Positions 5,137-29,602 of a stretch of 29,602 bases of DNA are shown piece by piece. The stretch is from a virus (lineage: Duplodnaviria; Heunggongvirae; Uroviricota; Caudoviricetes), in IMG/VR virus record IMGVR_UViG_2740892234_000018, positions 1 through 29,602 of that record; one strand, 5' to 3'. The notes under the pieces were generated by a model, which was not told the DNA's origin, made no database searches, and saw only the letters and a list, made by a program, of their open reading frames with translations. How positions within the stretch are numbered: position 1 is the first letter of the stretch; each line of letters opens with the position of its first letter. The position numbers were made by a program, and so were the translations under genes.

Positions 5137-7973
5137 GTGAGTTTGCATGGAGCTGGAATGAACCGCAGCCAGCTATTGATCCGGACGACTTCGCGAACTT
5201 CAGCCAGTTGCCAAAAACCGGACTGCAACGCGCCATTCGTTACTACTATGAGGCGGACAAAAAGGCTCAGGAAGAACAGGATGCGAAGGAAGAAGCCTTT
5301 TTCGCACAATCCGCCATGGGTAAAAAACTCATGGCATCCCTTGAGGAAGCCGGGCAACGCGAAAAACTGATAAAAAACATCATCAGTAAGCGCCAGGAAA
5401 TAAAGCAAGACCCGGTGGCCTGCGCCTTTGCCGAACTGAAGGCACTTCCCGTTTATCTGCGAGACCCCCTGAGCCGCCGCCTCTCTTTTTTACGTAAGAA
5501 GCAGGAATCTGACCGCCAGAAAGGAAAAAACGCCAGGCTGGCAGAACGCTATGCACAAGGAACCCTGCTCAAAATATTCAAACGTCTGAAACGCACTGAC
5601 GGACGCTGGCTGACACCGTGTTATTGCTCCCTTGCCGGACGCGAACGCCTGGACGATTTGCTTTACCTGCCGCAGCTCAACAAACACCAGATACAGACGC
5701 TGGCCACCATGACGGCGGCGATGTTCAGCAGCACTTTTGAAACACTCTGCGATAACTTTGGCGCGACCGATGGCGAGCTGACCATGAAAATTGCGCTGAA
5801 GGCGTATCAGATGCTGGCCCGCATGGCGTTACATCTGCACACCATGCCGCCGCATTACGAAGCACTGAGAACGGACAAAGACCGGAAGAACGCACCGAAT
5901 ACGGAGCTGCTGCCGGGTGCCATCCTTCGCCTGACCTGTGCGGAATGGTGGAAACACAAACTGTGGCTTTTACGTTGCGAGTGGCGGGAAGAACAACTCC
6001 GTGCCGCCTGTCTGGTTTCCAGAAAAACATCACCCTATCTGAGCCAGGACGCGTTAAGCGAGTTTCGCGCACAGCGCGAGAAAACACGCGATTTTCTGAA
6101 AAGTTTCATGCTGGAAAATGAAGACGGGTTCACGATTGATCTCGAGACGGTGTATTACGCGGGAGTAAGTAACCCGGTTCACCGTAAGGCAGAAATGATG
6201 GCCACCATGAAGGGACTGGAACTTCTGGCCGAAGCCCGTGGCGACAGAGCGGTGTTTCTGACTGTCACCTGCCCGTCAAAATACCACGCAACAACGGAGA
6301 ACGGTCATCCGAACCCCAAATGGAACGGGGCCACCATGCGCGACTCCAGCGATTACCTGGTTAACACGTTTTTTGCGGCGGTCCGCAAAAAACTGAACCG
6401 CGACGGTCTGCGCTGGTATGGCATCCGCACGGTGGAGCCTCACCATGACGGCACTGTGCACTGGCATATGATGGTCTTTGCACATCCGGACGAGATTGAA
6501 ACCATCGTGTCCCACGTCTGCGATATTGCCATTCAGGAAGACCGCCACGAGCTGGGCGATGACATAACTCCGCGTTTTAAGGCGGAGTACGTAGACGGCT
6601 CAAAAGGCACACCAACCAGCTACATCGCCACCTACATCGGAAAGAACCTGGACAGCCGCGCCGTGGATGGCATCGACCCGAAAACGGGCAAGCCACGCGT
6701 TGACCACGAAACCGGAAAATCAATGGCCGAGAGCGTGGAACGCGCCATCGGCTGGGCGCGCCTTCACCGGGTCCGCCAGTTCCAGTTCTTTGGTATCCCC
6801 TCCCGTCAGGTGTGGCGTGAACTGCGCCGCCTTGCCAGCCAGATGGCACGCAACCCGGAAGGCCCGCAACGGCTGAAGGATGACGCAATGGACGCGGTAC
6901 TCGCTGCCGCTGATGCCGGATGTTTTGCCACCTACATTGAGAAACAGGGTGGCGTACTTGTTCCACGCAAAGACTACCTGATTCGCACCGCCTACGACCT
7001 CGCAGATGAGCTGAACGATTACGGTGAACAGAGCGTACAGATTTACGGGATCTGGTCGCCGCTCATTGGGGAGTCTTCCCGCGTATGCACGCATCCGGAT
7101 AACTGGAAGCTGGTAAGACGCAAACCGGAAGCGGAAGACAGCGCCCGCGAAAATGGTTTTGACCTTCAGGGCGGCCCTGCCGCCCCTTGGACTCGTGGCA
7201 ATAACTGTCCCCGTGTACAGGAAACAGACAACAACGGGACAGAACAGCCGGAAGAACGACCAACATCGTGGCTGCAGCTCCCTGACGGCGTTGAAGTGAA
7301 CGAATGGATGCGCTCACTGAAACGACACGAACGCCGGGCGCTGATGCGTTCGCTTCGTGACAAACAGGCAAAAAACAGCAGCGATGAAATGCAGAGCTGG
7401 ACACAGAGCCGCAAACAGCCGCGGCCTTTGCCTGATAACCACGAGTTACTCGCTAAAGAATGGCGGGAGTCTGCTGAATCTCTCGGCCTGCATATCGGTG
7501 AACAGCAGATGCAGCACCTGTTACGGGGCGGCAGTCTGTACGTTGACGGCAGCATCATTGCACCGCAGGGATTTGAAATTGTACGCAAACCGGATACCCG
7601 CCCGGACAGCCGAATCACGCAGCTCTGGCAACGCCTGAGCCGTAATCACGGCGTAAGCAGCACGGAGATCCGCCATAACCCGGTCGCCAGCTATCTGGAA
7701 CAGCTAGGGGCATCAGACCCCGAAGCCGCCGCACGCCTGGCATCCACACTTCAGCAGGACCAGAACACCATGAAAACCCCCGTTACCGTGCTTTCTGACA
7801 TGCTGCGCGCCATCCGTGACGCAGAGCACGCACAGAGAATCAGTGAAACCACTGAACGCGCCCGCCGCAAAGCAGACCTGCTGCGGAGTGGCCTGACCAG
7901 TGGAAACAAAAAACAGACAGAAACGGGATTCACAAATCCCGTAAATGAGCAAAAAACGCGCCAAAAAACATGA
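5133..7973 (+). CDS. A: Rolling-circle replication initiator (P2 gpA family, HUH endonuclease)
   Basis: HUH motif VHWHMMVF and catalytic tyrosine pair in SYIATYIGKN (Y-x-x-x-Y). Start taken at ATG 5133 rather than the track's GTG 5106. 946 aa. Confidence 0.9.
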   Translation: MSEFAWSWNEPQPAIDPDDFANFSQLPKTGLQRAIRYYYEADKKAQEEQDAKEEAFFAQSAMGKKLMASLEEAGQREKLIKNIISKRQEIKQDPVACAFAELKALPVYLRDPLSRRLSFLRKKQESDRQKGKNARLAERYAQGTLLKIFKRLKRTDGRWLTPCYCSLAGRERLDDLLYLPQLNKHQIQTLATMTAAMFSSTFETLCDNFGATDGELTMKIALKAYQMLARMALHLHTMPPHYEALRTDKDRKNAPNTELLPGAILRLTCAEWWKHKLWLLRCEWREEQLRAACLVSRKTSPYLSQDALSEFRAQREKTRDFLKSFMLENEDGFTIDLETVYYAGVSNPVHRKAEMMATMKGLELLAEARGDRAVFLTVTCPSKYHATTENGHPNPKWNGATMRDSSDYLVNTFFAAVRKKLNRDGLRWYGIRTVEPHHDGTVHWHMMVFAHPDEIETIVSHVCDIAIQEDRHELGDDITPRFKAEYVDGSKGTPTSYIATYIGKNLDSRAVDGIDPKTGKPRVDHETGKSMAESVERAIGWARLHRVRQFQFFGIPSRQVWRELRRLASQMARNPEGPQRLKDDAMDAVLAAADAGCFATYIEKQGGVLVPRKDYLIRTAYDLADELNDYGEQSVQIYGIWSPLIGESSRVCTHPDNWKLVRRKPEAEDSARENGFDLQGGPAAPWTRGNNCPRVQETDNNGTEQPEERPTSWLQLPDGVEVNEWMRSLKRHERRALMRSLRDKQAKNSSDEMQSWTQSRKQPRPLPDNHELLAKEWRESAESLGLHIGEQQMQHLLRGGSLYVDGSIIAPQGFEIVRKPDTRPDSRITQLWQRLSRNHGVSSTEIRHNPVASYLEQLGASDPEAAARLASTLQQDQNTMKTPVTVLSDMLRAIRDAEHAQRISETTERARRKADLLRSGLTSGNKKQTETGFTNPVNEQKTRQKT

Positions 7974-8018
7974 AGTGCGCACAAAACAGGCAAAAGCGGG
8001 ATTTCAGAATCCCGTAAA
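7925..8018. repeat. Two copies of a 21-bp hairpin motif GGGATT-N4-AATCCCGTAAA
   Basis: Copies at 7925..7945 (inside the 3' end of A) and 7998..8018 (just upstream of the ParM-like gene); each contains the dyad GGGATT/AATCCC. Confidence 0.6.
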
Positions 8019-8049
8019 CGATTAATTAATCAACATAAGGAAAACCGAC

Positions 8050-9009
8050 ATGAAAATTTACATCGACGACGGCTCCACCAACATCAAGCTGGCATGGACT
8101 GAGAACGGCGAACGCCGCAACGCCATCAGCCCGAACAGCTTCAAGTCGGAATGGTCTGCGCCGTTCGGTGGCTCGCAGCCTGCGAACTACATGCTTGATG
8201 GCGTGCGCTATGGTTTTGATCCGGTCAGCGATCGCTTTGTCCAGACGACCGACACGCAATACCAGTACAGCGATGTGAATGTAATCGCCATTCACCACGC
8301 GCTGGTCAAATCAGGCATCACACCACAGGAGGTGGATGTGGTTGTCACCCTGCCACTGAGCGAATATTTCGACACAAACGCACAGCCGGACATGGCCAAC
8401 ATCAACCGCAAAAAAGCGAACGTTATGCGCCCGGTGGAGTACCAGAACGGTGAGGCATTCACTATCCGTAACGTGCGGGTTATGCCTGAATCCATTCCGG
8501 CTGGCTTTAAAGCACTGGCTGACATGAGTCCGTTTGAATCCCTGCTGATTGTGGATTTAGGCGGAACCACGCTGGATGTGGCAAAGGTTCAGGGACAACT
8601 GGCAGGTATCAGCCAGGTGTTTTGCGATCCACACGTAGGCGTTTCCCTGATGGCCGATGCCGTACTGTCGGTGATGGCCACTAACGGTATGCGTACCAGT
8701 CACCACATCGCCAATACCATTATCGAACATCGCCATGATGAAGCCTGGCTGCGCCAGCACATCCACAATGACGCGCATTACAACAGCCTGATGGCGGTTA
8801 TTCGTGAAAAGGAAGAAACACTGAAACAACGCGTGATCCGCGCGCTGGCGGTTTTTTCGGGTTACGGGCGGGTGATGGTTGTCGGTGGAGGGGCGGAGAT
8901 TGTGGCACCCGCTATCCGCGAAGCCTGCGGAGTTAATGCGACTTTCATCGCAGACGGGGTGCCACAGTTTGCTCTGGTTAATGGGCTGTACGCAATGGAC
9001 AAGGAGTAA
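8050..9009 (+). CDS. parM: ParM/StbA-family actin-like ATPase
   Basis: MKIYIDDGSTNIKLAW N-terminus plus SPNSF, YSDVNV, HHAL, MPESIPAG, DLGGTTLD, GGGAE and LVNG blocks, as in recalled plasmid R1 ParM. SD AAGGA upstream. Confidence 0.85.
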   Translation: MKIYIDDGSTNIKLAWTENGERRNAISPNSFKSEWSAPFGGSQPANYMLDGVRYGFDPVSDRFVQTTDTQYQYSDVNVIAIHHALVKSGITPQEVDVVVTLPLSEYFDTNAQPDMANINRKKANVMRPVEYQNGEAFTIRNVRVMPESIPAGFKALADMSPFESLLIVDLGGTTLDVAKVQGQLAGISQVFCDPHVGVSLMADAVLSVMATNGMRTSHHIANTIIEHRHDEAWLRQHIHNDAHYNSLMAVIREKEETLKQRVIRALAVFSGYGRVMVVGGGAEIVAPAIREACGVNATFIADGVPQFALVNGLYAMDKE

Positions 9010-9013
9010 ACCA

Positions 9014-9325
9014 ATGACGACACCAACCAGACGGATAAGTTACTATCTGAAGCCCGCCGCCGTCAAGAACGAAGGCGAAGCATGCGCATGGCTGGACAGC
9101 CTTACACCAGAAGCCCGCAAAAGCGGCCAACGCGTGGCTTTTCTGGCCGGGCTGGCACTTCTGAAAATGAATCCAGCAGAGGCTTACCGACTGGCTGCAT
9201 GGGCTGACGATGAGGCGTTATCAGTGACACAAACCAGGATAGAATGCCCCGCGTCACAGCCAGTATCAACCGCACAGATAACCAGTCAGATGGCCGGAAA
9301 TATCCGGGCGTTATTTCCCGAATAA
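9014..9325 (+). CDS. ParR/StbB-like small DNA-binding adaptor (putative)
   Basis: 103 aa immediately after the ParM-like gene; SD AAGGAG. RRISYYLKP...LDSLTPEAR...AFLAGLALLKMNP...IRALFPE parallels recalled ParR. Confidence 0.6.
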   Translation: MTTPTRRISYYLKPAAVKNEGEACAWLDSLTPEARKSGQRVAFLAGLALLKMNPAEAYRLAAWADDEALSVTQTRIECPASQPVSTAQITSQMAGNIRALFPE

Positions 9326-9330
9326 CACAA

Positions 9331-9354
9331 CATCAGGGCGCATCCGCCCTGATG
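9331..9354 (+). terminator. Hairpin downstream of the ParR-like gene
   Basis: CATCAGGGCG-catc-CGCCCTGATG 10-bp perfect stem; weak T tract, so only a possible terminator. Confidence 0.4.
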
Positions 9355-9423
9355 ACTTTAATCCGGGAACATAAACAAGGGGGACACAATGCAACACATT
9401 GACAGAGAAAAAGGAAAAAAAGC

Positions 9424-20999: not shown

Positions 21000-21522
21000 T
21001 TCACTGTTACCGCCATCAGCCAGCAATTTCATGCGTTGTGCCGAAGCTGTCGGAACGCGCATTACAGACATTCCGGTAGACCTCAACACGCTGTGGTCGC
21101 CGGACACCTGCCCGGTGCATCTGCTGCCTTATCTCGCCTGGGCATTTTCCGTTGACCGCTGGGATCGCAACTGGCCGGAAGAGACAAAGCGACAGGTGAT
21201 TCGTGATGCATGGCTGATACACCGACACAAAGGGACCATCAGCGCACTGCGCCGGGCCATTGAGCCGCTGGGATACCTCATTCGTGTGTCTGAGTGGTGG
21301 GAGTTCGGCGGAGAACCGGGAACATTTACCGTTGAAGTCGGCACGCTGGACAGTGGCGTGACGGAGGAAATGTATCTGGAAATGGAGCGGTTGATTGCTG
21401 ATGCCCGCCCGGTCAGCCGCCACATGACAGGGCTGAATATCATTCAGGAGATCCCGGGGGATATTTTCGCGGCGGCAGCAACTTACGACGGTGAAGTCAT
21501 TACCATTTATCCGGACGATTAA
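20992..21522 (+). CDS. I: Baseplate/tail protein I (P2 gpI-like)
   Basis: Start at MSNSLLPP overlapping the J end; 176 aa, same as P2 gpI. Confidence 0.8.
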
Positions 21523-21524
21523 GC

Positions 21525-23483
21525 ATGAGTACCACAACACGTAAATTTAAAACCATTATCACTGATACTGGTGCCAAAAAATTAGCTCAGGCAGCCGCGC
21601 CAGATGGTAATCCTGTCCGCCTGACTCACATGGCCGTGGGCGACGGTGGCGGCACGTTGCCCACACCAGACAGTAAGCAGACCCGTCTGGTGCATGAGGT
21701 GTGGCGACATACTGTTAATCGCGTCATCCTGGACGCAACACATCAGAACCGCATTATTGCGGAGCTGGTTATTCCTCCTGAAACGGGTGGATTCTGGATC
21801 CGGGAAATTGGTGTATTTGATGAGCACGGCGATTTAATCGCGGTGGGCAATACTGCCGAAAGTTACAAACCAACCGTTGCCGAGGGGTCCGGACGTGCAC
21901 AAACATTTCGCACCATTCTGACCGTATCCAGCACTGCCACCGTGGCGCTTACCGTGGATAACACCATGGTGATGGCCACAGTGGATTACGTGAATGACAA
22001 ACTGAAAGAACATGAACAGTCACGACGTCACCCGGACGCCTCGCTGACCGCAAAAGGCTTTGTTCAACTCAGTAGCGCCACTAACAGCACGTCTGAAGCA
22101 CTGGCCGCAACGCCGAAAGCGGTCAAGACAGCCTATGACCTTGCTAACGGGAAATATACCGCTCAGGACGCCACGACGGCACGAAAAGGAATAGTCCAAC
22201 TCAGTAGCGCCACTAACAGCACGTCTGAAGCACTAGCCGCAACGCCGAAAGCGGTCAAGACAGCCTATGACCTTGCTAACGGGAAATATACCGCTCAGGA
22301 TGCCACGACGGCACGAAAAGGAATAGCCCAGCTCAGTAGCGCCACCAACAGCGATTCAGAAACGCTGGCGGCAACACCAAAGGCGGTAAAGGCAGCCTAT
22401 GACCTTGCTAACGGGAAATATACCGCACAGGACGCCACGACGGCACGAAAAGGAATAGTCCAGCTCAGTAGCGTCACTAACAGTGATTCTGAAACGCTTG
22501 CCGCGACTCCGAAAGCGGTGAAAGCCGCTAATGACAATGCAAACGGGCGTGTGCCCTCTGGACGTAAGGTTAATGGCAAATCACTAGCCAATGATGTCAA
22601 TGTTACATCGCAGGATATTTTTAACGACCAGAGTATTGAGATTGGTGCAAATCAGAATCTGGATAATTACAAAACACCGGGGCTGTACCATCAGCCATTG
22701 AATGCCAATACAAGCGCAGCGCTGAAATACCCGGAGAATTTTGCGGGTACACTGGTTGTGCTTAAAAATGCCGGGATAACACAGATTTACTATGTGTATG
22801 ACACATCCAGAAGCTATACCCGCAGCCAGTACTCAACGGGTGACTGGACACCATGGACGCCACAAGATTCATTTCCGGTAGGTGCGGCGATACCGTGGCC
22901 TTCTGATTCAGTGCCTACAGGCTATACCGTTATGCAGGGGCAGACTTTTGATAAAACAGTCTACCCTCTGCTTGCAGTCGCTTATCCGTCTGGTGTGATC
23001 CCTGATATGCGTGGCTGGACGATTAAGGGCAAACCCGCCAGTGGTCGGGCCGTATTATCTCAGGAACAGGACGGCATTAAATCACACTCCCACAGTGCCA
23101 GCGCCTCCAGTACGGACTTGGGGACAAAAACCACATCATCATTTGACTACGGCACCAAGACGTCCAGTTCATTTAACCATGGCACTAAAACCACGAATAG
23201 CGCCGGGGATCATTCACACAATATTCCTGTTGGCAACACTGGCGCAGGTAATGGTGTTTCGGCTGGTTATAACTCAGGGCTTGGCACTGGAAAAACAAGT
23301 AACGCAGGGGGGCACTCTCACACAGTAAATATTGGCGCACACACTCATACGGTAGGAATTGGCGCACACACACACTCCGTTGCGATAGGTTCACACGGGC
23401 ATACCATCACCGTTAACGCTACGGGTAACGCAGAAAACACCGTAAAAAACATCGCATTTAACTATATTGTGAGGCTTGCATGA
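21525..23483 (+). CDS. H: Tail fibre protein (P2 gpH-like N-terminus, repeat region, His-rich tip)
   Basis: N-terminus [25 protein letters not shown]...; four tandem 44-aa repeats; C-terminal HxH tip [35 protein letters not shown]...NYIVRLA. Confidence 0.9.
22060..22560 (+). repeat. Tandem 132-bp repeats inside tail fibre gene H (about 4 copies)
   Basis: Unit starts at 22065, 22197, 22329 and 22461, each encoding ...[40 protein letters not shown]. Confidence 0.85.
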
Positions 23484-24382
23484 TTACGCTCATTCTTTCT
23501 GCACCAGTAACAGAAATGGCTGAAGCATTTAAGCAGGTATTTGCAAATGCAGATAGTGTGAATATTGTCGGAAAGCCATTTGAAACAATCAGAGAATTTG
23601 ACTGCATGGTAAGTGCGGCAAATAGTTTCGGCCTGATGGATGGTGGCGTTGATGCCGCCATTACCGCATTCTTCGGTACTCAGTTACAGTCCCGCGTTCA
23701 GAATCATATTCTTCGTGAATATCTCGGCGAACAGCCTGTAGGTTCTGCATTTGTCATTGAAACGGGGCATAATCATCACCCCTGGCTGGTACATGCGCCA
23801 ACAATGCGTGTTCCGTTGACAATTGACGGAACAGACGCTGTATATAACGCAACCTGGGCCGCTCTGCTTGCCATCTTTCAGCACAATAAAAACGCAACGA
23901 CAGACATGAAAATAAAAACAGTGGTATTCCCTGCAATGGGGGCCGGATGTGGTCAGGTGCCGTTTGAAAGTGTTGCCCGACAGATGAAGCAGGCATGGGA
24001 TAACTTTAATAAAAAAACAGAATCAATTAACTGGGAATACGCACAATCTCGCCAGTCGGCAGTATTTGGCACATATGCATACTGTCCGGGTAATTCCGTT
24101 TGCCGTTATGCGGATACTAAATATATTGGATGCGGCGATTATCGGACGTGTTGCTCTCGTTCCGGGCAAATCTGTATTAACCCTGAACATCAGGCTGATG
24201 ATGTACTGATACAACATCAGGCTAATAACCGTTTTCGCCCTGGTTCGCATATACACCGGATTAATCCAGAAAATCCCGTAGGTAATGTCACCTCTGGCGC
24301 ACATAGCCACGGAAGTAGCATCGTTATTGGTACTCCTACCCATACGCTCAATAAACAATATTCTGTCTCTGATATTAAGTAG
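23480..24382 (+). CDS. Macrodomain protein with Cys/His-rich C-terminal region
   Basis: ATGA-coupled to the H stop. Three macrodomain blocks: [39 protein letters not shown] and [15 protein letters not shown]-terminal part is Cys-rich with HxH motifs (GSHIH, GAHSHG). Confidence 0.8.
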
Positions 24383-24390
24383 AGGTGAAC

Positions 24391-24594
24391 ATGGATTTCA
24401 GAATGAGTGAACAATCACGGACCATAAAAATTTATAACCTGCTGACCGGAACTAATGAATTTATTGGGGAAGGTGATGCATACATTCCACCTCATACAGG
24501 TCTGCCTGCAAACAGTACCGATATTGCACCACCAGATATTCCGGCTGGCTTCGTGGCTGTTTTCAACAGTGATGAGGCATCGTGGCATCTCGTT
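24391..24594 (+). CDS. tfa: Tail fibre assembly protein, 5' fragment truncated by gap
   Basis: [18 protein letters not shown]...DEASWHLV is nearly identical to the N-terminus of the tfa at 27580; runs into the N run. Confidence 0.75.
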
Positions 24595-24604
24595 NNNNNN
24601 NNNN
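24595..24604. other. Run of 10 N (assembly gap)
   Basis: Ten N characters; the coding frame is discontinuous across it (tfa fragment before, stf codon about 21 after). Confidence 0.95.
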
Positions 24605-27580
24605 CAGAACTGCACAATCCAGCTGAAAGCAAAACGTAACAGCACCACGGTGGTGGTGAACACGCTGGCCTCAGAAAATCCGGATGAAGCCGGGCGTTAC
24701 AGCATGGACGTTGAGTACGGTCAGTACAGCGTTATTCTGTTGGTGGAGGGATTCCCGCCGTCACATGCCGGGACCATCACCGTGTATGAAGATTCTCAAC
24801 CGGGGACGCTGAATGATTTTCTCGGTGCCATGACGGAGGATGATGCCCGTCCGGAGGCATTGCGACGTTTTGAACTGATGGTGGAAGAGGTGGCGCGTAA
24901 CGCGTCCGCGGTGGCACAGAACACGGCAGCCGCGAAGAAGTCAGCCAGTGATGCCAGCACATCAGCCCGTGAGGCGGCAACCCATGCGGCTGATGCTGCG
25001 GACTCAGCACGCGCAGCCAGCACGTCAGCCGGACAGGCCGCGTCGTCGGCTCAGTCAGCGTCTTCCAGCGCAGGAACGGCATCAACAAAGGCCACTGAAG
25101 CATCAAAAAGTGCTGCCGCTGCAGAGTCCTCAAAAAGCGCGGCGGCCACCAGTGCCGGTGCGGCAAAAACGTCAGAAACGAATGCTGCAGCGTCACAACA
25201 ATCAGCAGCCACTTCTGCATCCACCGCGACCACGAAAGCGTCAGAAGCTGCCACCTCAGCCCGGGATGCGTCGGCTTCAAAAGAGGCGGCAAAATCATCA
25301 GAAACGAGCGCAGCCTCGAGCGCCAGTAGTTCCGCTTCCTCGGCAACGGCGGCAGGCAATTCCGCGAAAGCGGCAAAAACGTCCGAGACGAACGCTAAGT
25401 CTTCTGAAACGGCAGCGGAACAGAGTGCCTCCGCAGCAGCAGACTCAAAAACAGCGGCTGCATCATCTGCCAGCGCCGCGTCAACAAGTGCCGGGCAGGC
25501 CTCAGCCAGTGCCACCGCTGCCGGAAAGTCGGCAGAAAGTGCCGCATCATCCGCTTCAACAGCCACAACGAAGGCTGGCGAAGCCACTGAACAGGCCAGC
25601 GCAGCAGCGAGTTCTGCTTCCGCAGCGAAGACATCCGAAACGAACGCGAAAGCGTCGGAAACCAGCGCAGAATCCTCAAAAACGGCTGCCGCATCGTCCG
25701 CCAGTTCGGCGGCGTCATCGGCCTCATCTGCGTCTGCTTCAAAAGATGAGGCGACCAGACAGGCGTCAGCAGCGAAGGGCAGCGCCACGACGGCATCCAC
25801 GAAGGCGACAGAGGCAGCTGGCAGTGCGACGGCGGCAGCACAGAGCAAAAGTACAGCAGAATCCGCGGCAACGCGCGCCGAGACAGCAGCAAAACGGGCA
25901 GAGGATATTGCATCCGCCGTGGCGCTTGAGGATGCGAGCACGACGAAAAAGGGGATAGTACAGCTCAGCAGTGCGATCGACAGCACTTCCGAGTCACTGG
26001 CGGCAACGCCAAAAGCCGTTAAGGCCGCGTATGACCTGGCTAACGGGAAATACACCGCACAGGATGCAACGACAGCACAGAAAGGGATAATCCAGCTAAG
26101 CAGCGCGACCAACAGCACGTCTGAAACGCTGGCGGCAACGCCAAAGGCAGTAAAAGCAGCCAATGACAATGCTGAGAAACGTCTGCAGAAAGATCAGAAC
26201 GGTGCGGATATCCCTGGCAAAGACACCTTTACGAAAAATATTGGTGCCTGCCGTGCCTTCGGTGGGTCAGTAAGCACAACAACAGGAAACTGGACGACTG
26301 CACAGTTTATCGAGTGGCTGGATTCTCAGGGAGCATTTAACCATCCATACTGGATGTGCAAGGGTTCCTGGTCTTATGGCAATAATAAAATCATTACTGA
26401 TACTGGCTGCGGTAATATTCATCTCGCCGGAGCTGTCATTGAAGTAATGGGGATAAAGTCAGCGATGACGATCCGCATTACCACTCCGACCACATCCAGC
26501 GGTGGCGGAACAACCAACGCCCAGTTTACCTATATTAATCACGGAACAGATTATTCACCTGGCTGGCGAAGGGACTATAACTCCAGAAATAAGCCAACGG
26601 CATCAGAGATCGGGGCGCTACCGTCAGGTGGAACAGCAGTATCATCAGTTAATCTGGCTTCAAAAGGTCGGGTAGCCGCGCTGACAGACAATACGCAGGG
26701 GGCAGCAGGTCTTGAGTTATACGAGGTGTATAACAACGGATATCCAACAACGTATGGAAATATCATTCACCTGAAAGGGATGACAGCCGTTGGCGAAGGT
26801 GAGTTACTCATCGGCTGGAGTGGTACAAGCGGTGCTCATGCTCCGGCATTTATTCGTTCACGACGGGATACGACCGACGCAAACTGGTCGCCGTGGGCGC
26901 AGCTTTACACCTCGGCTCATCCTCCTGCAGAGTTTTATCCAGTCGGTGCACCAATCCCGTGGCCATCAGATACCGTTCCGTCTGGTTATGCCCTGATGCA
27001 GGGGCAGACTTTTGACAAATCTGCATACCCGAAACTTGCAGCCGCTTATCCGTCAGGCCTGATCCCTGATATGCGTAGCTGGACGATTAAGGGCAAACCT
27101 GCCAGTGGTCGGGCCGTATTGTCTCAGGAACAGGACGGCATTAAATCGCACACCCACAGCGCCAGCGCATCCAGTACGGATTTGGGGACGAAAACCACAT
27201 CGTCGTTTGATTACGGCACTAAATCCACGAATAACATCGGGGCGCATACGCACAGTGTGAGCGGTACAGCCGCAAGTGCTGGAAACCATACTCATAGTGT
27301 CACAGGCGCATCAGCAGTCAGCCAGTGGTCACAAAATGGGTCAGTACATAAGGTAGTGTCTGCGGCCAGTGTGAATACAAGTGCTGCAGGAGCGCACACT
27401 CATAGTGTCAGCGGCACAGCCGCATCTGCAGGTGCACACGCACATACTGTCGGTATTGGTGCTCATACGCACTCGGTTGCGATTGGCTCACATGGACACA
27501 CCATCACCGTTAACGCTGCTGGTAACGCGGAAAACACCGTCAAAAACATCGCATTTAACTATATTGTGAGGCTTGCATAA
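24605..27580 (+). CDS. stf: Side tail fibre protein (lambdoid Stf-like), 5'-partial
   Basis: Begins in frame at ...[19 protein letters not shown]; long Ala/Ser-rich region; two repeats of the same type as in H; His-rich tip ending NYIVRLA. Closely resembles recalled phage lambda Stf. Confidence 0.85.
25950..26175 (+). repeat. Two tandem repeat units of the fibre-type 44-aa repeat inside stf
   Basis: [44 protein letters not shown] followed by [30 protein letters not shown]. Confidence 0.7.
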
Positions 27581-28014
27581 TGGCATTCAGAATGAGTGAA
27601 CAACCACGGACCATAAAAATTTATAATCTGCTGGCCGGAACTAATGAATTTATTGGTGAAGGTGATGCATATATTCCGTCTCATACAGGTCTGCCAGCAA
27701 ACAGTACCGATATTGCACCGCCGGATATTCCGGCAGGCTTCGTGGCTGTTTTCAACAGTGATGAGGCATCGTGGCATCTCGTTGAAGACCATCGGGGTAA
27801 AACGGTTTATGACGTAGCGTCAGGGGACGCGTTATTTATTTCTGAACTCGGTCCGTTACCGGAAAATGTTACCTGGTTATCGCCGGAAGGGGAGTTTCAG
27901 AAGTGGAACGGCACAGCCTGGGTGAAAGATGCAGAAGCAGAAAAACTATTCCGGATCCGGGAGGCGGAAGAAACAAAAAACAGCCTGATGCAGGTAGCCA
28001 GTGAGCATATTGCG
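27580..28014 (+). CDS. tfa: Tail fibre assembly protein (lambdoid Tfa-like), 3'-truncated by gap
   Basis: [33 protein letters not shown]... ATG overlaps the stf stop; runs into the second N run. Confidence 0.85.
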
Positions 28015-28024
28015 NNNNNNNNNN
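28015..28024. other. Run of 10 N (assembly gap)
   Basis: Ten N characters; about 120 nt before and after the gap are near-identical but not identical. Confidence 0.95.
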
Positions 28025-28025
28025 G

Positions 28026-28301
28026 TCGCCGGATGGAGAGTGTCAGAAGTGGAACGGCACATCCTGGGTGAAAGATGCAGAAGCAGAAAAACTGTTTCGG
28101 GTACAGGAGGCAGAAGAAACAAAAAACAGCCTGATGCAGGTAGCCAGTGAGCATATTGCGCCACTTCAGGATGCTGTAGATCTGGAAATCGCAACGGAGG
28201 AAGAAACCTCATTGCTGGAAGCCTGGAAAAAGTATCGGGTGTTGCTGAACCGTGTTGATACATCAACTGCACAGGATATTGAATGGCCAGCACTGCCGTA
28301 G
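28026..28301 (+). CDS. tfa: Tail fibre assembly protein, 3' fragment after gap
   Basis: In-frame continuation ...[72 protein letters not shown]... to a stop at 28301. Confidence 0.75.
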
Positions 28302-28398
28302 GGTAAAACATATAAATTCTATAATTAGATGTATCTTTCCATTTACGGCAAGGAAGGGGGCTTGGAAGACGTAAAGCATCTCACACCAAGAGTATTTT

Positions 28399-28989
28399 TT
28401 ATATGTCAGGTGTCTGAAGTTTTGCTTTGGCTCTTAAAATGGTTTGCCGCGAGGTTTTGAATTCCCGGGCAATGGCACTTATACTTACACCTGACTTAAT
28501 CCGTTCGAATACCACCTGTTTCTGTTCTTCATTTAACACAGGTGGTCGACCAAAACGTTTCCCTGCGCCCCGGGCTCTTACTATCCCGGAATGAGTGCGT
28601 TCAAGTAAAAGGTCTCGTTCAAATTCAGCGACTGCTGAAATTACTTGCATCATCATTTTTCCTGTTGGACTGGTCAGGTCAATGCCCCCCAATGCTAAGC
28701 AATGCACTCTGATACCTGTTTCGGTCAGTTGTTCCACTGTTTTCCTGATATCCATTGCATTACAACCAAGGCGATCCAGTTTTGTCACAATCAATTGATC
28801 ACCACATTTCAGGCGAGCAAGCAACCGGTTAAAACCAGGACGCTCACTGGTTGCTGCTGAGCCGCTAATGTGTTCTTCGATTATTTGCTGAGGTTTGATT
28901 TTAAAACCTGCACTTTCGATTTCCCGGCGTTGATTTTCGGTGGTCTGATCCAGCGTTGATATCCGACAGTAAGCAAAAATTCGAGACAT
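28399..28989 (-). CDS. Serine recombinase (resolvase/invertase family)
   Basis: 196 aa; N-terminal catalytic block YCRISTLDQ (active-site Ser), [10 protein letters not shown], and a C-terminal HTH ([19 protein letters not shown]). Confidence 0.85.
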
Positions 28990-29368
28990 AGTGAGACTCT
29001 ATACGAAATTGGTGTACATATCATAATGCATATCCAAAAATTATTTCGCTTATTATTGTACATATTTGTATGTATACGTTCGAAAATAAACGAATTCGGA
29101 TGCAGTCCCGTAATTTTGGTGTAACCAAAAATCGATTTTTTGAAAAATGGCTTTAACTCGGTTTGTTTTTCGAACTCCGGGCGGACTCGAGGAAGACGAA
29201 TAATAGTGTTGTATGTTATTTCAACCAGATTTTAAGTTGTTTGGTCGTGGAAAAGTGGAGCAAAATGTTGTTAAAGTGGAAAAATGGTAAAAAAAGTAGG
29301 TTGTTGCGGAATAACGTAGTTGTTGATATTTTTTTTAATGCATTGAAAAATTATTTTTCAGGGGGGTA

Positions 29369-29602
29369 TTACACTTTACCATTTAAATTTTGGTTGTCTT
29401 TAAGAACTGATATCGCTGTTTGTAATAATTCTTTGTTATCCAGCCATGACTTTTTCTTTATGTTTCCTTCAATGTAATCAAGCAATGTTCTGGTATTGAT
29501 AGGTCTTCCCTGTTTTGCTACTTCCACGACAGCATCTCCCAGGATAATTCTGACTTCAGGAAGCTGCGCAGGGAACCACTTTAGGGTGTCTTTTGATTTC
29601 AT
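29369..29602 (-). CDS. Hypothetical small protein in AT-rich segment
   Basis: 77-aa ORF whose ATG is the last three bases of the window; AT-rich context, no recognisable motif. Confidence 0.4.
   Translation of the reverse strand: MKSKDTLKWFPAQLPEVRIILGDAVVEVAKQGRPINTRTLLDYIEGNIKKKSWLDNKELLQTAISVLKDNQNLNGKV

Follow-up and report, generated by a model that had tools for sequence, protein, structure and literature searches.

The tail-fibre region of a Caudoviricetes record is probably an assembly tangle of two prophages

Results

Composition of the window

We analyzed a window of 29,602 nucleotides (IMG/VR virus record IMGVR_UViG_2740892234_000018, positions 1 to 29,602) and propose that its section 24391–28301 is probably a tangle of the assembly graph that was written out as a line, with a gene order that is not real. 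The order shown thus most probably stems from the assembly and has no biological counterpart. Three things were observed directly, i.e., the identities of the pieces, the arithmetic of their breakpoints and the structure of related loci in finished genomes, and all three bear out the suspicion of a first-pass annotation that the stf/tfa block is mis-scaffolded.

Exactly two N runs interrupt the window, both 10 bases long, at 24595–24604 and 28015–28024. This results in three pieces, named here c1 (up to 24594), c2 (24605–28014) and c3 (28025 onward; the first-pass annotation had placed this restart one position too late, at 28026). The first N run marks what appears to be a false junction between a P2-like prophage and a lambdoid stf gene, whereas the second lies between two alternative middle sections of tfa placed in tandem. 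Both interrupt reading frames, as had been noticed earlier, and false open reading frames arise at 24455–27580, 27580–28071 and 28068–28301; the first of these, taken from the six-frame list, spans gap 1 with 1041 residues. In the source record's own gene calls, tfa is split into 82, 163 and 91 residues, and stf is N-terminally truncated to 991 residues.

The left piece is part of a P2-like prophage

c1 belongs to a P2-like prophage and breaks off inside tfa, after 204 nt. Compared gene by gene with a finished locus (L004), the window shows the P2 late-gene order Q, P, O, N, M, L, X, lysis genes, R, S, V, W, J, I, H. The tail fibre gene H (21525–23483, plus strand, 652 residues) carries the Pfam domains Phage_tail_fib, Phage_fiber_2 (four times) and Collar, and J-I-H synteny is found in L003 and L004. 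The C-terminal part of H has 84–86% DNA identity to the stf C-terminus (repeat families D2 and D5). Between H and tfa lies a macro-domain gene (23480–24382, plus strand; Pfam Macro, E = 9.6e-19), which RefSeq annotates as macro domain-containing protein in L002, L003 and L004; a literature search on macro-domain genes beside tail fibres returned nothing relevant. The piece closes with nt 1–204 of a P2-type tfa (24391–24594, plus strand), which has no mismatch to the tfa of L003, L022, L026 and L028 and 13 mismatches to the lambdoid copy. Within the window, this P2-type tfa of the Caudo_TAP family is present only as nt 1–204 and nt 300–449.

The same P2-like module occurs in four finished genomes (F8704-2, 31B19CPO012, DEC5B and E110019), where tfa is followed by an acetyltransferase gene, U and T; the loci showing this order are L003, L004, L032 and L033. 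Among contigs that encode an identical H protein, all 24 examined also run from tfa into acetyltransferase, U and T, and three of these have no mismatch to either c1 or the P2-type segment at the start of c3. A P2-like tfa that runs into pin was found in none of the four finished genomes and none of the 24 other contigs, where the order was tfa, acetyltransferase, U, T, FII, FI.

The middle piece and the right end are lambdoid

c2 starts inside a lambdoid side tail fibre gene, stf, covers it from codon 18 through the stop codon (24605–27580, plus strand) and goes on to nt 1–435 of the following tfa (27580–28014, plus strand). Its 3,410 nt are 99.94% identical to positions 6001–9410 of the E. 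coli 2013C-3264 locus (L001). At a threshold of at least 99%, 2013C-3264 is the only one of 5,426 finished genomes to match, and the match is contiguous there with that to the lambdoid part of c3. The tfa part is 100% identical to the L001 gene over all 435 nt and is lambdoid at the diagnostic sites. It is because of the gap only that stf lacks codons 1–17 in the window. The start at codon 18, which had been put at around codon 21, follows from the Pfam phage_tail_N profile, whose position 18 falls on residue 1, and from alignment to the full 2013C-3264 gene. This start of c2 (stf nt 52) was considered as a branch point between stf alleles and rejected, since five other alleles have no polymorphism at that base. 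As a counterpoint to an artefact, the start is thus not accounted for by the few stf alleles compared.

Further right, c3 carries an intact pin-type serine DNA invertase of 196 residues (28399–28989, minus strand; Pfam Resolvase and HTH_7) and a cold-shock-like ydfK of the Qin/Rac type (29369–29602, minus strand), which forms the right end of the lambdoid prophage according to the RefSeq annotation of L001 and L002. In 10 of 10 other records examined, pin lies beside ydfK at the end of a lambdoid prophage. Beyond ydfK, the source scaffold continues with ynaM, dinI and prfC, i.e., the same chromosomal locus as in 2013C-3264. A phage_tail_N stf, a Caudo_TAP tfa and a convergent serine invertase with ydfK at the prophage end together make up a lambdoid module, which in L001 reads J, lom, stf, tfa, pin, ydfK, and ten further contexts agree.

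The flanks of the gaps hence map to different loci in finished genomes, c1 to L003, L004, L032 and L033, and c2 together with the lambdoid part of c3 to the single L001 locus. The earlier proposal that the stf-tfa block 24605–28014 comes from a prophage other than the P2-like one on its left is thereby supported.

The third piece is a composite

The first 136 nt of c3 (28025–28160, plus strand; tfa nt 300–435) are of P2 type, and from nt 450 (28175) onward tfa, pin and ydfK are lambdoid. Over nt 300–449, this interloper agrees fully with the P2 type and differs from the lambdoid type at 11 positions; 28025–28160 matches the P2-type tfa of L003, L022, L026 and L028 without a mismatch. The diagnostic sites lie within nt 300–387 (28025–28112), where c3 is P2-type at 11 of 11, whereas all sites from nt 450 are lambdoid; nt 388–449 (28113–28174) are common to both types. 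Over nt 388–576, c3 differs from the P2 type at 35 positions. To L001 it is 99.3% identical, with all 10 substitutions in its first 88 nt and otherwise one single-base indel in pin. From 28175 onward, tfa, pin and ydfK follow the locus to which 24605–28014 also maps, tfa without any difference. The hybrid joint itself, P2-type to nt 449 and lambdoid from 450, is free of Ns in the source, which is a counterpoint to an artefact.

The lambdoid tfa resumes with nt 436–576 at 28161–28301 (plus strand), and a direct join to 28014 restores an intact gene of 191 residues. When 28015–28160 is removed, 27580–28014 and 28161–28301 form a 576-nt tfa with no mismatch to that of L001 and an open 191-residue frame with the Caudo_TAP domain. 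The true lambdoid structure would most likely be a contiguous stf-tfa-pin-ydfK. The first-pass annotation had taken the sequence after gap 2 as the continuation of 24391–24594. This is correct for 28025–28160, which is the same P2-type allele after a missing 95 nt, but not from nt 450 onward, and on diagnostic sites and context we rejected c3 as a simple continuation of c1 past tfa nt 449. For the annotation to hold in full, a genuine recombination between prophages would be needed.

Breakpoints coincide with shared tfa sequence

The two tfa 5′ ends, described earlier as near-identical direct repeats of about 200 bp, indeed match over 204 nt (24391–24594 and 27580–27783) with 13 mismatches (93.6%). 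Across gap 2, 27879–28014 is duplicated at 28025–28160 (136 nt with 11 mismatches; 135 nt at 93% in the repeat search). The near-identical copies reported there hence exist, although they measure 136 nt and not about 120 nt, and the view that paralogous contigs were abutted at this gap holds; a lambdoid and a P2-type tfa middle face each other there. These repeats are homologous gene copies, and a chance match is excluded. Inverted repeats of at least 20 nt linking or flanking the block were not found; the tfa copies are direct only. An invertible segment composed of pin and the duplicated tfa was rejected on these grounds.

The contigs end at a constant offset. In c1, the last base that differs between the copies is tfa nt 156 (24546), and the closing 48 nt (24547–24594) are the same in both (204 = 156 + 48). 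In c2, the last base unlike the P2 type is nt 387 (27966), again followed by 48 nt common to both copies (435 = 387 + 48). The interloper begins at nt 300, the first diagnostic base past a 59-nt shared run. Only three runs of at least 49 nt are shared by the tfa copies, i.e., nt 157–224 (68 nt), nt 241–299 (59 nt) and nt 388–449 (62 nt). All of this is consistent with a de Bruijn graph at k = 49 in which shared stretches have collapsed, and by a rough estimate the probability of a chance agreement is <1e-3. An intact pair of prophages and their reciprocal recombinant would yield one and the same graph, so that the breakpoint arithmetic cannot tell the two apart. On a fixed 10-N convention of particular assemblers we found nothing usable in the literature, and we leave the assembler unnamed.

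We infer from these observations how the assembler behaved and that this strain carries both prophages intact. Two prophages would be present in the source genome (scaffold CCQE01000106.1 of GCA_000752595.1), one P2-like with H, the macro-domain gene and tfa, the other lambdoid, at the prfC locus, with stf, tfa, pin and ydfK; their tfa genes are about 94% identical. The three shared runs would be long enough to collapse at k = 49, and contigs would consequently stop exactly k-1 = 48 nt beyond the last copy-specific base. A short-read assembler probably tangled both tfa copies, and the scaffolder probably then placed the branches in series: the P2 entry branch (c1), 10 N, the lambdoid entry branch with shared runs and lambdoid middle (c2), then 10 N, the P2 middle (136 nt), a shared run and the lambdoid exit with the tfa 3′ end, pin and ydfK. 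In its true structure, the P2-like prophage would continue from tfa into the serine acetyltransferase gene and U, T, E, FII, FI, D and ogr, all of which are absent from the window.

Discussion

Weighing of other explanations

A hybrid tfa that exists in the strain is an unlikely alternative. Here, the P2-like and lambdoid tfa genes would have crossed within the 62-nt identical run (nt 388–449), fusing the P2-like left arm to the lambdoid right end (tfa 3′ end, pin, ydfK) at prfC. The chromosome would read H, macro, hybrid tfa, pin, ydfK, prfC, i.e., c1 plus 95 nt plus c3, and c2 (stf and the tfa 5′ part) would be an interloper, truly leading to the P2 tfa 3′ end and the acetyltransferase, that was drawn in because it holds the collapsed shared run. 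An inversion or translocation between both prophages is implied. We give this crossover a low probability, yet c3 crosses the joint without Ns, its P2-type part and c1 carry one allele, and the same joint is present in two other short-read draft assemblies. Of these, L031 (GCA_051222605.1, another strain) has P2 J-I-H-macro-hybrid tfa-pin on one 5.9-kb contig without Ns, and L030 (GCA_024365455.1), which begins at tfa nt 301, carries this hybrid adjoining pin; if these contigs are correct, recombination in nt 388–449 occurs in nature. Against this, neither the hybrid nor the L031 arrangement occurs in any of the 5,426 finished genomes, where 28025–28420 has no match at 99% or above (best 97.5%). 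A 106-nt hybrid joint had no exact match in viral, genome and metagenome contig collections, in which both parental joints, used as controls, were matched. Exact-protein look-ups placed the hybrid on 1 contig compared with 217 and 180 contigs for the parental proteins, and the reciprocal hybrid was absent from them. Moreover, the hybrid of each draft combines a P2 middle with a lambdoid backbone whose middle is lambdoid in finished genomes, the best, near-perfect matches of c2 and of the lambdoid part of c3 form one contiguous 2013C-3264 locus, and c2 ends exactly 48 nt into a shared run, which indicates that the assembler met an unresolved branch there.

In another, very improbable explanation, a gene-conversion patch would have given this strain's lambdoid tfa a real P2-type nt 300–387. 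The true gene would be 27580–27878 plus 28025–28301, and 27879–28014 would stem from a third tfa copy. The tfa genes are in fact mosaic, L002 having its own mix of diagnostic sites, and L030 has a P2-type middle beside pin from nt 301. However, a collection of about 15 billion proteins lacks the exact protein joining lambdoid residues 1–100 to c3, c2 has no break and matches the 2013C-3264 tfa at 100% up to and including nt 435, and a third copy is required for which there is no evidence. That the order is real as scaffolded, i.e., a composite prophage with two tandem tail-fibre modules and short unsequenced gaps, is hardly credible. The scaffold itself is all that speaks for it, whereas it needs a tfa cut at nt 204, an stf without its first 17 codons and a tandem partial tfa duplication, the breakpoints lie at k-1 offsets from paralogue-specific bases, and nothing similar occurs in 5,426 finished genomes.

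Consequences

The main weight of the assembly tangle, our preferred explanation, lies in data quality. Taken as one prophage, the window is chimeric, with about two thirds of a P2-like prophage joined to the right end of a lambdoid one, and conclusions drawn from it on a phage with two tail-fibre sets, on host range or on prophage completeness would be wrong. As a correction, the window should be split at 24595, and for the lambdoid tfa 28015–28160 should also be deleted. Were the hybrid real, a large chromosomal inversion or translocation would be implied. The crossover would then have arisen independently in at least two further strains (L030 and L031), each time on a different lambdoid backbone, and the 62-bp run would act as a hotspot of recombination through which Myo- and Siphovirus-type prophages swap tail-fibre modules. 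Even so, recombination would be a modest case of an already known phenomenon, the exchange between prophages.

Comparison with known systems

The left part resembles the P2-family H-G (tfa) module in its order V, W, J, I, H, tfa and in the Pfam families Phage_tail_fib, Collar and Caudo_TAP, and relatives go on into P2 tail genes. It differs by the macro-domain gene between H and tfa and by the cut of tfa at nt 204 by the gap, and the FI-FII-E-T-U block of relatives is encoded on the opposite strand. The right part is akin to lambdoid stf-tfa modules with an orphan pin and ydfK as in Rac and Qin (stfR-tfaR-pinR, tfaQ-pinQ-ydfK): the finished relative reads J, lom, stf, tfa, pin (minus strand), ydfK (minus strand), the Pfam families phage_tail_N and Caudo_TAP are shared, and RefSeq annotates pinQ/pinR, tfaQ and ydfK on near-identical DNA. 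Here, in contrast, the prophage lies at the prfC locus and not at the K-12 Rac or Qin sites. With invertible tail-fibre segments (Mu G/Gin, P1 C/Cin, e14 P/Pin) the window has in common a Pin-type serine invertase by tail-fibre genes and two tfa copies; unlike them, its tfa repeats are direct, no inverted repeat of at least 20 nt flanks them, and the duplication is explained by assembly. Contig breaks and mis-scaffolds caused by repeats in short-read de Bruijn assemblies of prophage-rich E. coli share with the window contig ends k-1 inside paralogue-shared sequence, fixed minimal N runs, alternative branches in tandem and flanks at different finished loci. Compared with typical cases, the sole particularity is that a 136-nt branch from the second paralogue sits between the gap and a shared run; because of it, the third piece resembles a hybrid gene.

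Two gaps divide tfa into pieces of two alleles

The window contains two N runs and no others, both 10 bases long (24595–24604 and 28015–28024), which cut it into three pieces, c1 (up to 24594), c2 (24605–28014) and c3 (28025 onward). As the first-pass annotation had noted, near-duplicate segments of the tail-fibre-assembly gene tfa flank the gaps: 24391–24594 recurs at 27580–27783 (204 nt, 13 mismatches) and 27879–28014 at 28025–28160 (136 nt, 11 mismatches). Both runs also break reading frames, as had been claimed, and produce the false ORFs 24455–27580, 27580–28071 and 28068–28301. The stf gene is indeed truncated at the first gap; it resumes at codon 18, not at codon 21 as first read.

After numbering every tfa piece by its position in the gene, we scored the sites separating the P2-type allele (from L003 and L022, loci with related P2-like prophages) from the lambdoid allele (from L001, the lambdoid prophage locus of E. 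coli 2013C-3264). The tfa parts of c1 (nt 1–204) and c2 (nt 1–435) are P2-type and lambdoid, respectively, each with 0 mismatches. At 11 of 11 diagnostic sites in nt 300–387 the c3 part is P2-type, and all such sites from nt 450 onward are lambdoid; over nt 388–449 the alleles do not differ. The proposal that 28026 onward continues 24391–24594 thus holds for 136 nt only, which are P2-type, and fails beyond, where the sequence is lambdoid from nt 450. When 27580–28014 is joined directly to 28161–28301, the resulting tfa has 576 nt and differs at no position from that of 2013C-3264; we hence conclude that 28015–28160 comprises 10 N and a 136-nt interloper from the P2-type gene.

The pieces match a lambdoid and a P2-like prophage

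Over 3,410 nt, c2 is 99.94% identical to stf-tfa of the 2013C-3264 lambdoid prophage adjoining prfC, which bears out the suggestion that this block stems from another prophage. Among 5,426 finished genomes, 2013C-3264 alone matched c2 at ≥99%. The onward sequence of the same locus, i.e., the tfa 3' end, pin and ydfK, is matched by c3, where all 10 substitutions lie within the first 88 nt. By exact match of the 91-aa tfa fragment, the window corresponds to 79677–109278 of scaffold CCQE01000106.1 (146,788 nt; GCA_000752595.1), which beyond ydfK runs through ynaM, dinI, prfC and osmY, the same chromosomal site as that of the 2013C-3264 prophage. This shared site supports a single locus for c2 and for the lambdoid part of c3. 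As genes, stf, tfa and pin are ordinary. The pin-type invertase (28399–28989, 196 aa) is intact in the window and frameshifted in the otherwise identical 2013C-3264 locus. A search of 21000–29602 gave no inverted repeats that could delimit an invertible segment; the window offers the invertase no such segment.

Gene for gene, window 1–24594 corresponds to a P2-like prophage. An early region (int, C, cox, replication endonuclease, ParM-like gene) and the late genes Q, P, then O, N, M, L, X, lysis genes, R, S, V, W, J, I and H (21525–23483) are followed by a macro-domain gene (23480–24382) and, at the c1 end, the first 204 nt of tfa. In finished genomes with this module (97–99.9% identity), tfa has 579 nt; 3' of it come a serine acetyltransferase gene, U, T, E, FII and FI, which lie on the opposite strand, and after these D and ogr. 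The same gene order was found in 24 of 24 contigs read that encode an identical H protein. At 8050–9009, the early region holds the ParM-like plasmid segregation gene and a small partition or stability gene, names taken from the annotation of the near-identical locus L005.

A collapsed assembly graph could explain the breakpoints

We consider it probable that the arrangement is an assembly artefact joining two separate prophages. Allele sites, breakpoint offsets and finished-genome loci agree on a mis-scaffolded stf/tfa block, as had been suspected. Identical runs of at least 49 nt common to both tfa alleles are confined to nt 157–224, 241–299 and 388–449. c1 ends at tfa nt 204 (156+48), c2 at nt 435 (387+48), and the first diagnostic base past the 59-nt run, nt 300, is where the interloper starts. 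If the interloper were the last bases of all 49-mers holding a P2-specific base, written out in order, it would span exactly nt 300–435. This pattern would be expected if the two paralogues had collapsed at their shared runs in a de Bruijn graph of k = 49. The scaffold would then string the branches together in the order P2 entry, N10, lambdoid entry with shared runs and lambdoid middle, N10, P2 middle, shared run and lambdoid exit, with the P2 exit omitted.

The look-up of that 91-aa fragment and exact-protein look-ups also found the hybrid tfa protein in two other short-read assemblies. L031, a 5.9-kb contig without Ns (GCA_051222605.1, ABZOWX010000102.1, 1–5911), carries P2 J-I-H-macro upstream of hybrid tfa and pin; L030 (GCA_024365455.1, ABHEWC010000072.1, 1–1300) has the same hybrid from tfa nt 301, then pin and ydfK, on to ompT. 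Both carry the marker 537G, and their downstream sequences agree at 99.84%; the window has 537A and is 96.9% identical to them. A crossover in nt 388–449 may therefore occur in nature, and the proposed c1-to-c3 continuity may have a precedent. Real recombination between the prophages is nevertheless unlikely: neither the hybrid nor the L031 arrangement occurs in any of 5,426 finished genomes, and contig counts in exact-protein look-ups were 217 and 180 for the parental proteins, 1 for the hybrid and 0 for the reciprocal. The tfa 3'-pin-ydfK backbone of L030 reaches at most 99.3% identity to finished genomes, as would fit the lambdoid middle that these genomes have; the hybrid of the window likewise joins the P2 allele of the strain itself to the 2013C-3264-type backbone resident there. 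The hybrid in L030 and L031 reflects either a chimera that assembly keeps producing or a genuine crossover that recurs in nt 388–449; graph topology is identical for intact and recombinant genomes. That c3 reflects a gene-conversion patch within the lambdoid tfa is very improbable, and a gene order real exactly as scaffolded is hardly credible.

As a correction, the window should be split at 24595, and deleting 28015–28160 recovers the lambdoid tfa. The limits of the window, the 3' end of the P2 integrase gene at position 1 and exactly the ydfK start codon at 29602, look like those of a provirus interval set by a predictor. Because of the mis-scaffold, the predictor would have merged parts of two prophages.

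Fibre genes and relatives of the P2-like prophage

The macro-domain gene (300 aa) is wedged between H and tfa, its start overlapping the H stop codon. Pfam Macro covers residues 44–169, which leaves about 130 C-terminal aa unassigned. Lambdoid prophages, as in locus L002, have the same gene between stf and tfa; it thus forms a cassette with tfa and the tip of the fibre that moves between phages of the P2-like and lambdoid kinds. In DNA, the His-rich C-terminal tips of P2-type H (22865–23484) and lambdoid Stf (26929–27581) are 84–86% identical, so that the receptor-binding ends of the two fibres are related; the N-terminal parts are unrelated. Tandem repeats of 132 nt (44-aa Phage_fiber_2) occur four times in H (22034–22547) and twice in stf (25930–26179). 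H measures 608 aa in E110019, 652 aa in the window and 719 aa in DEC5B, prophages that are otherwise near-identical, and repeat copy number apparently accounts for this variation.

In the relatives L003/L004 (13914–20228, outside the window), acetyltransferase-U-T-E-FII-FI lie on the strand opposite to H-tfa and D-ogr, consistently across at least 24 contigs of the P2-like lineage. In canonical P2, FI to D are co-oriented with H-G.
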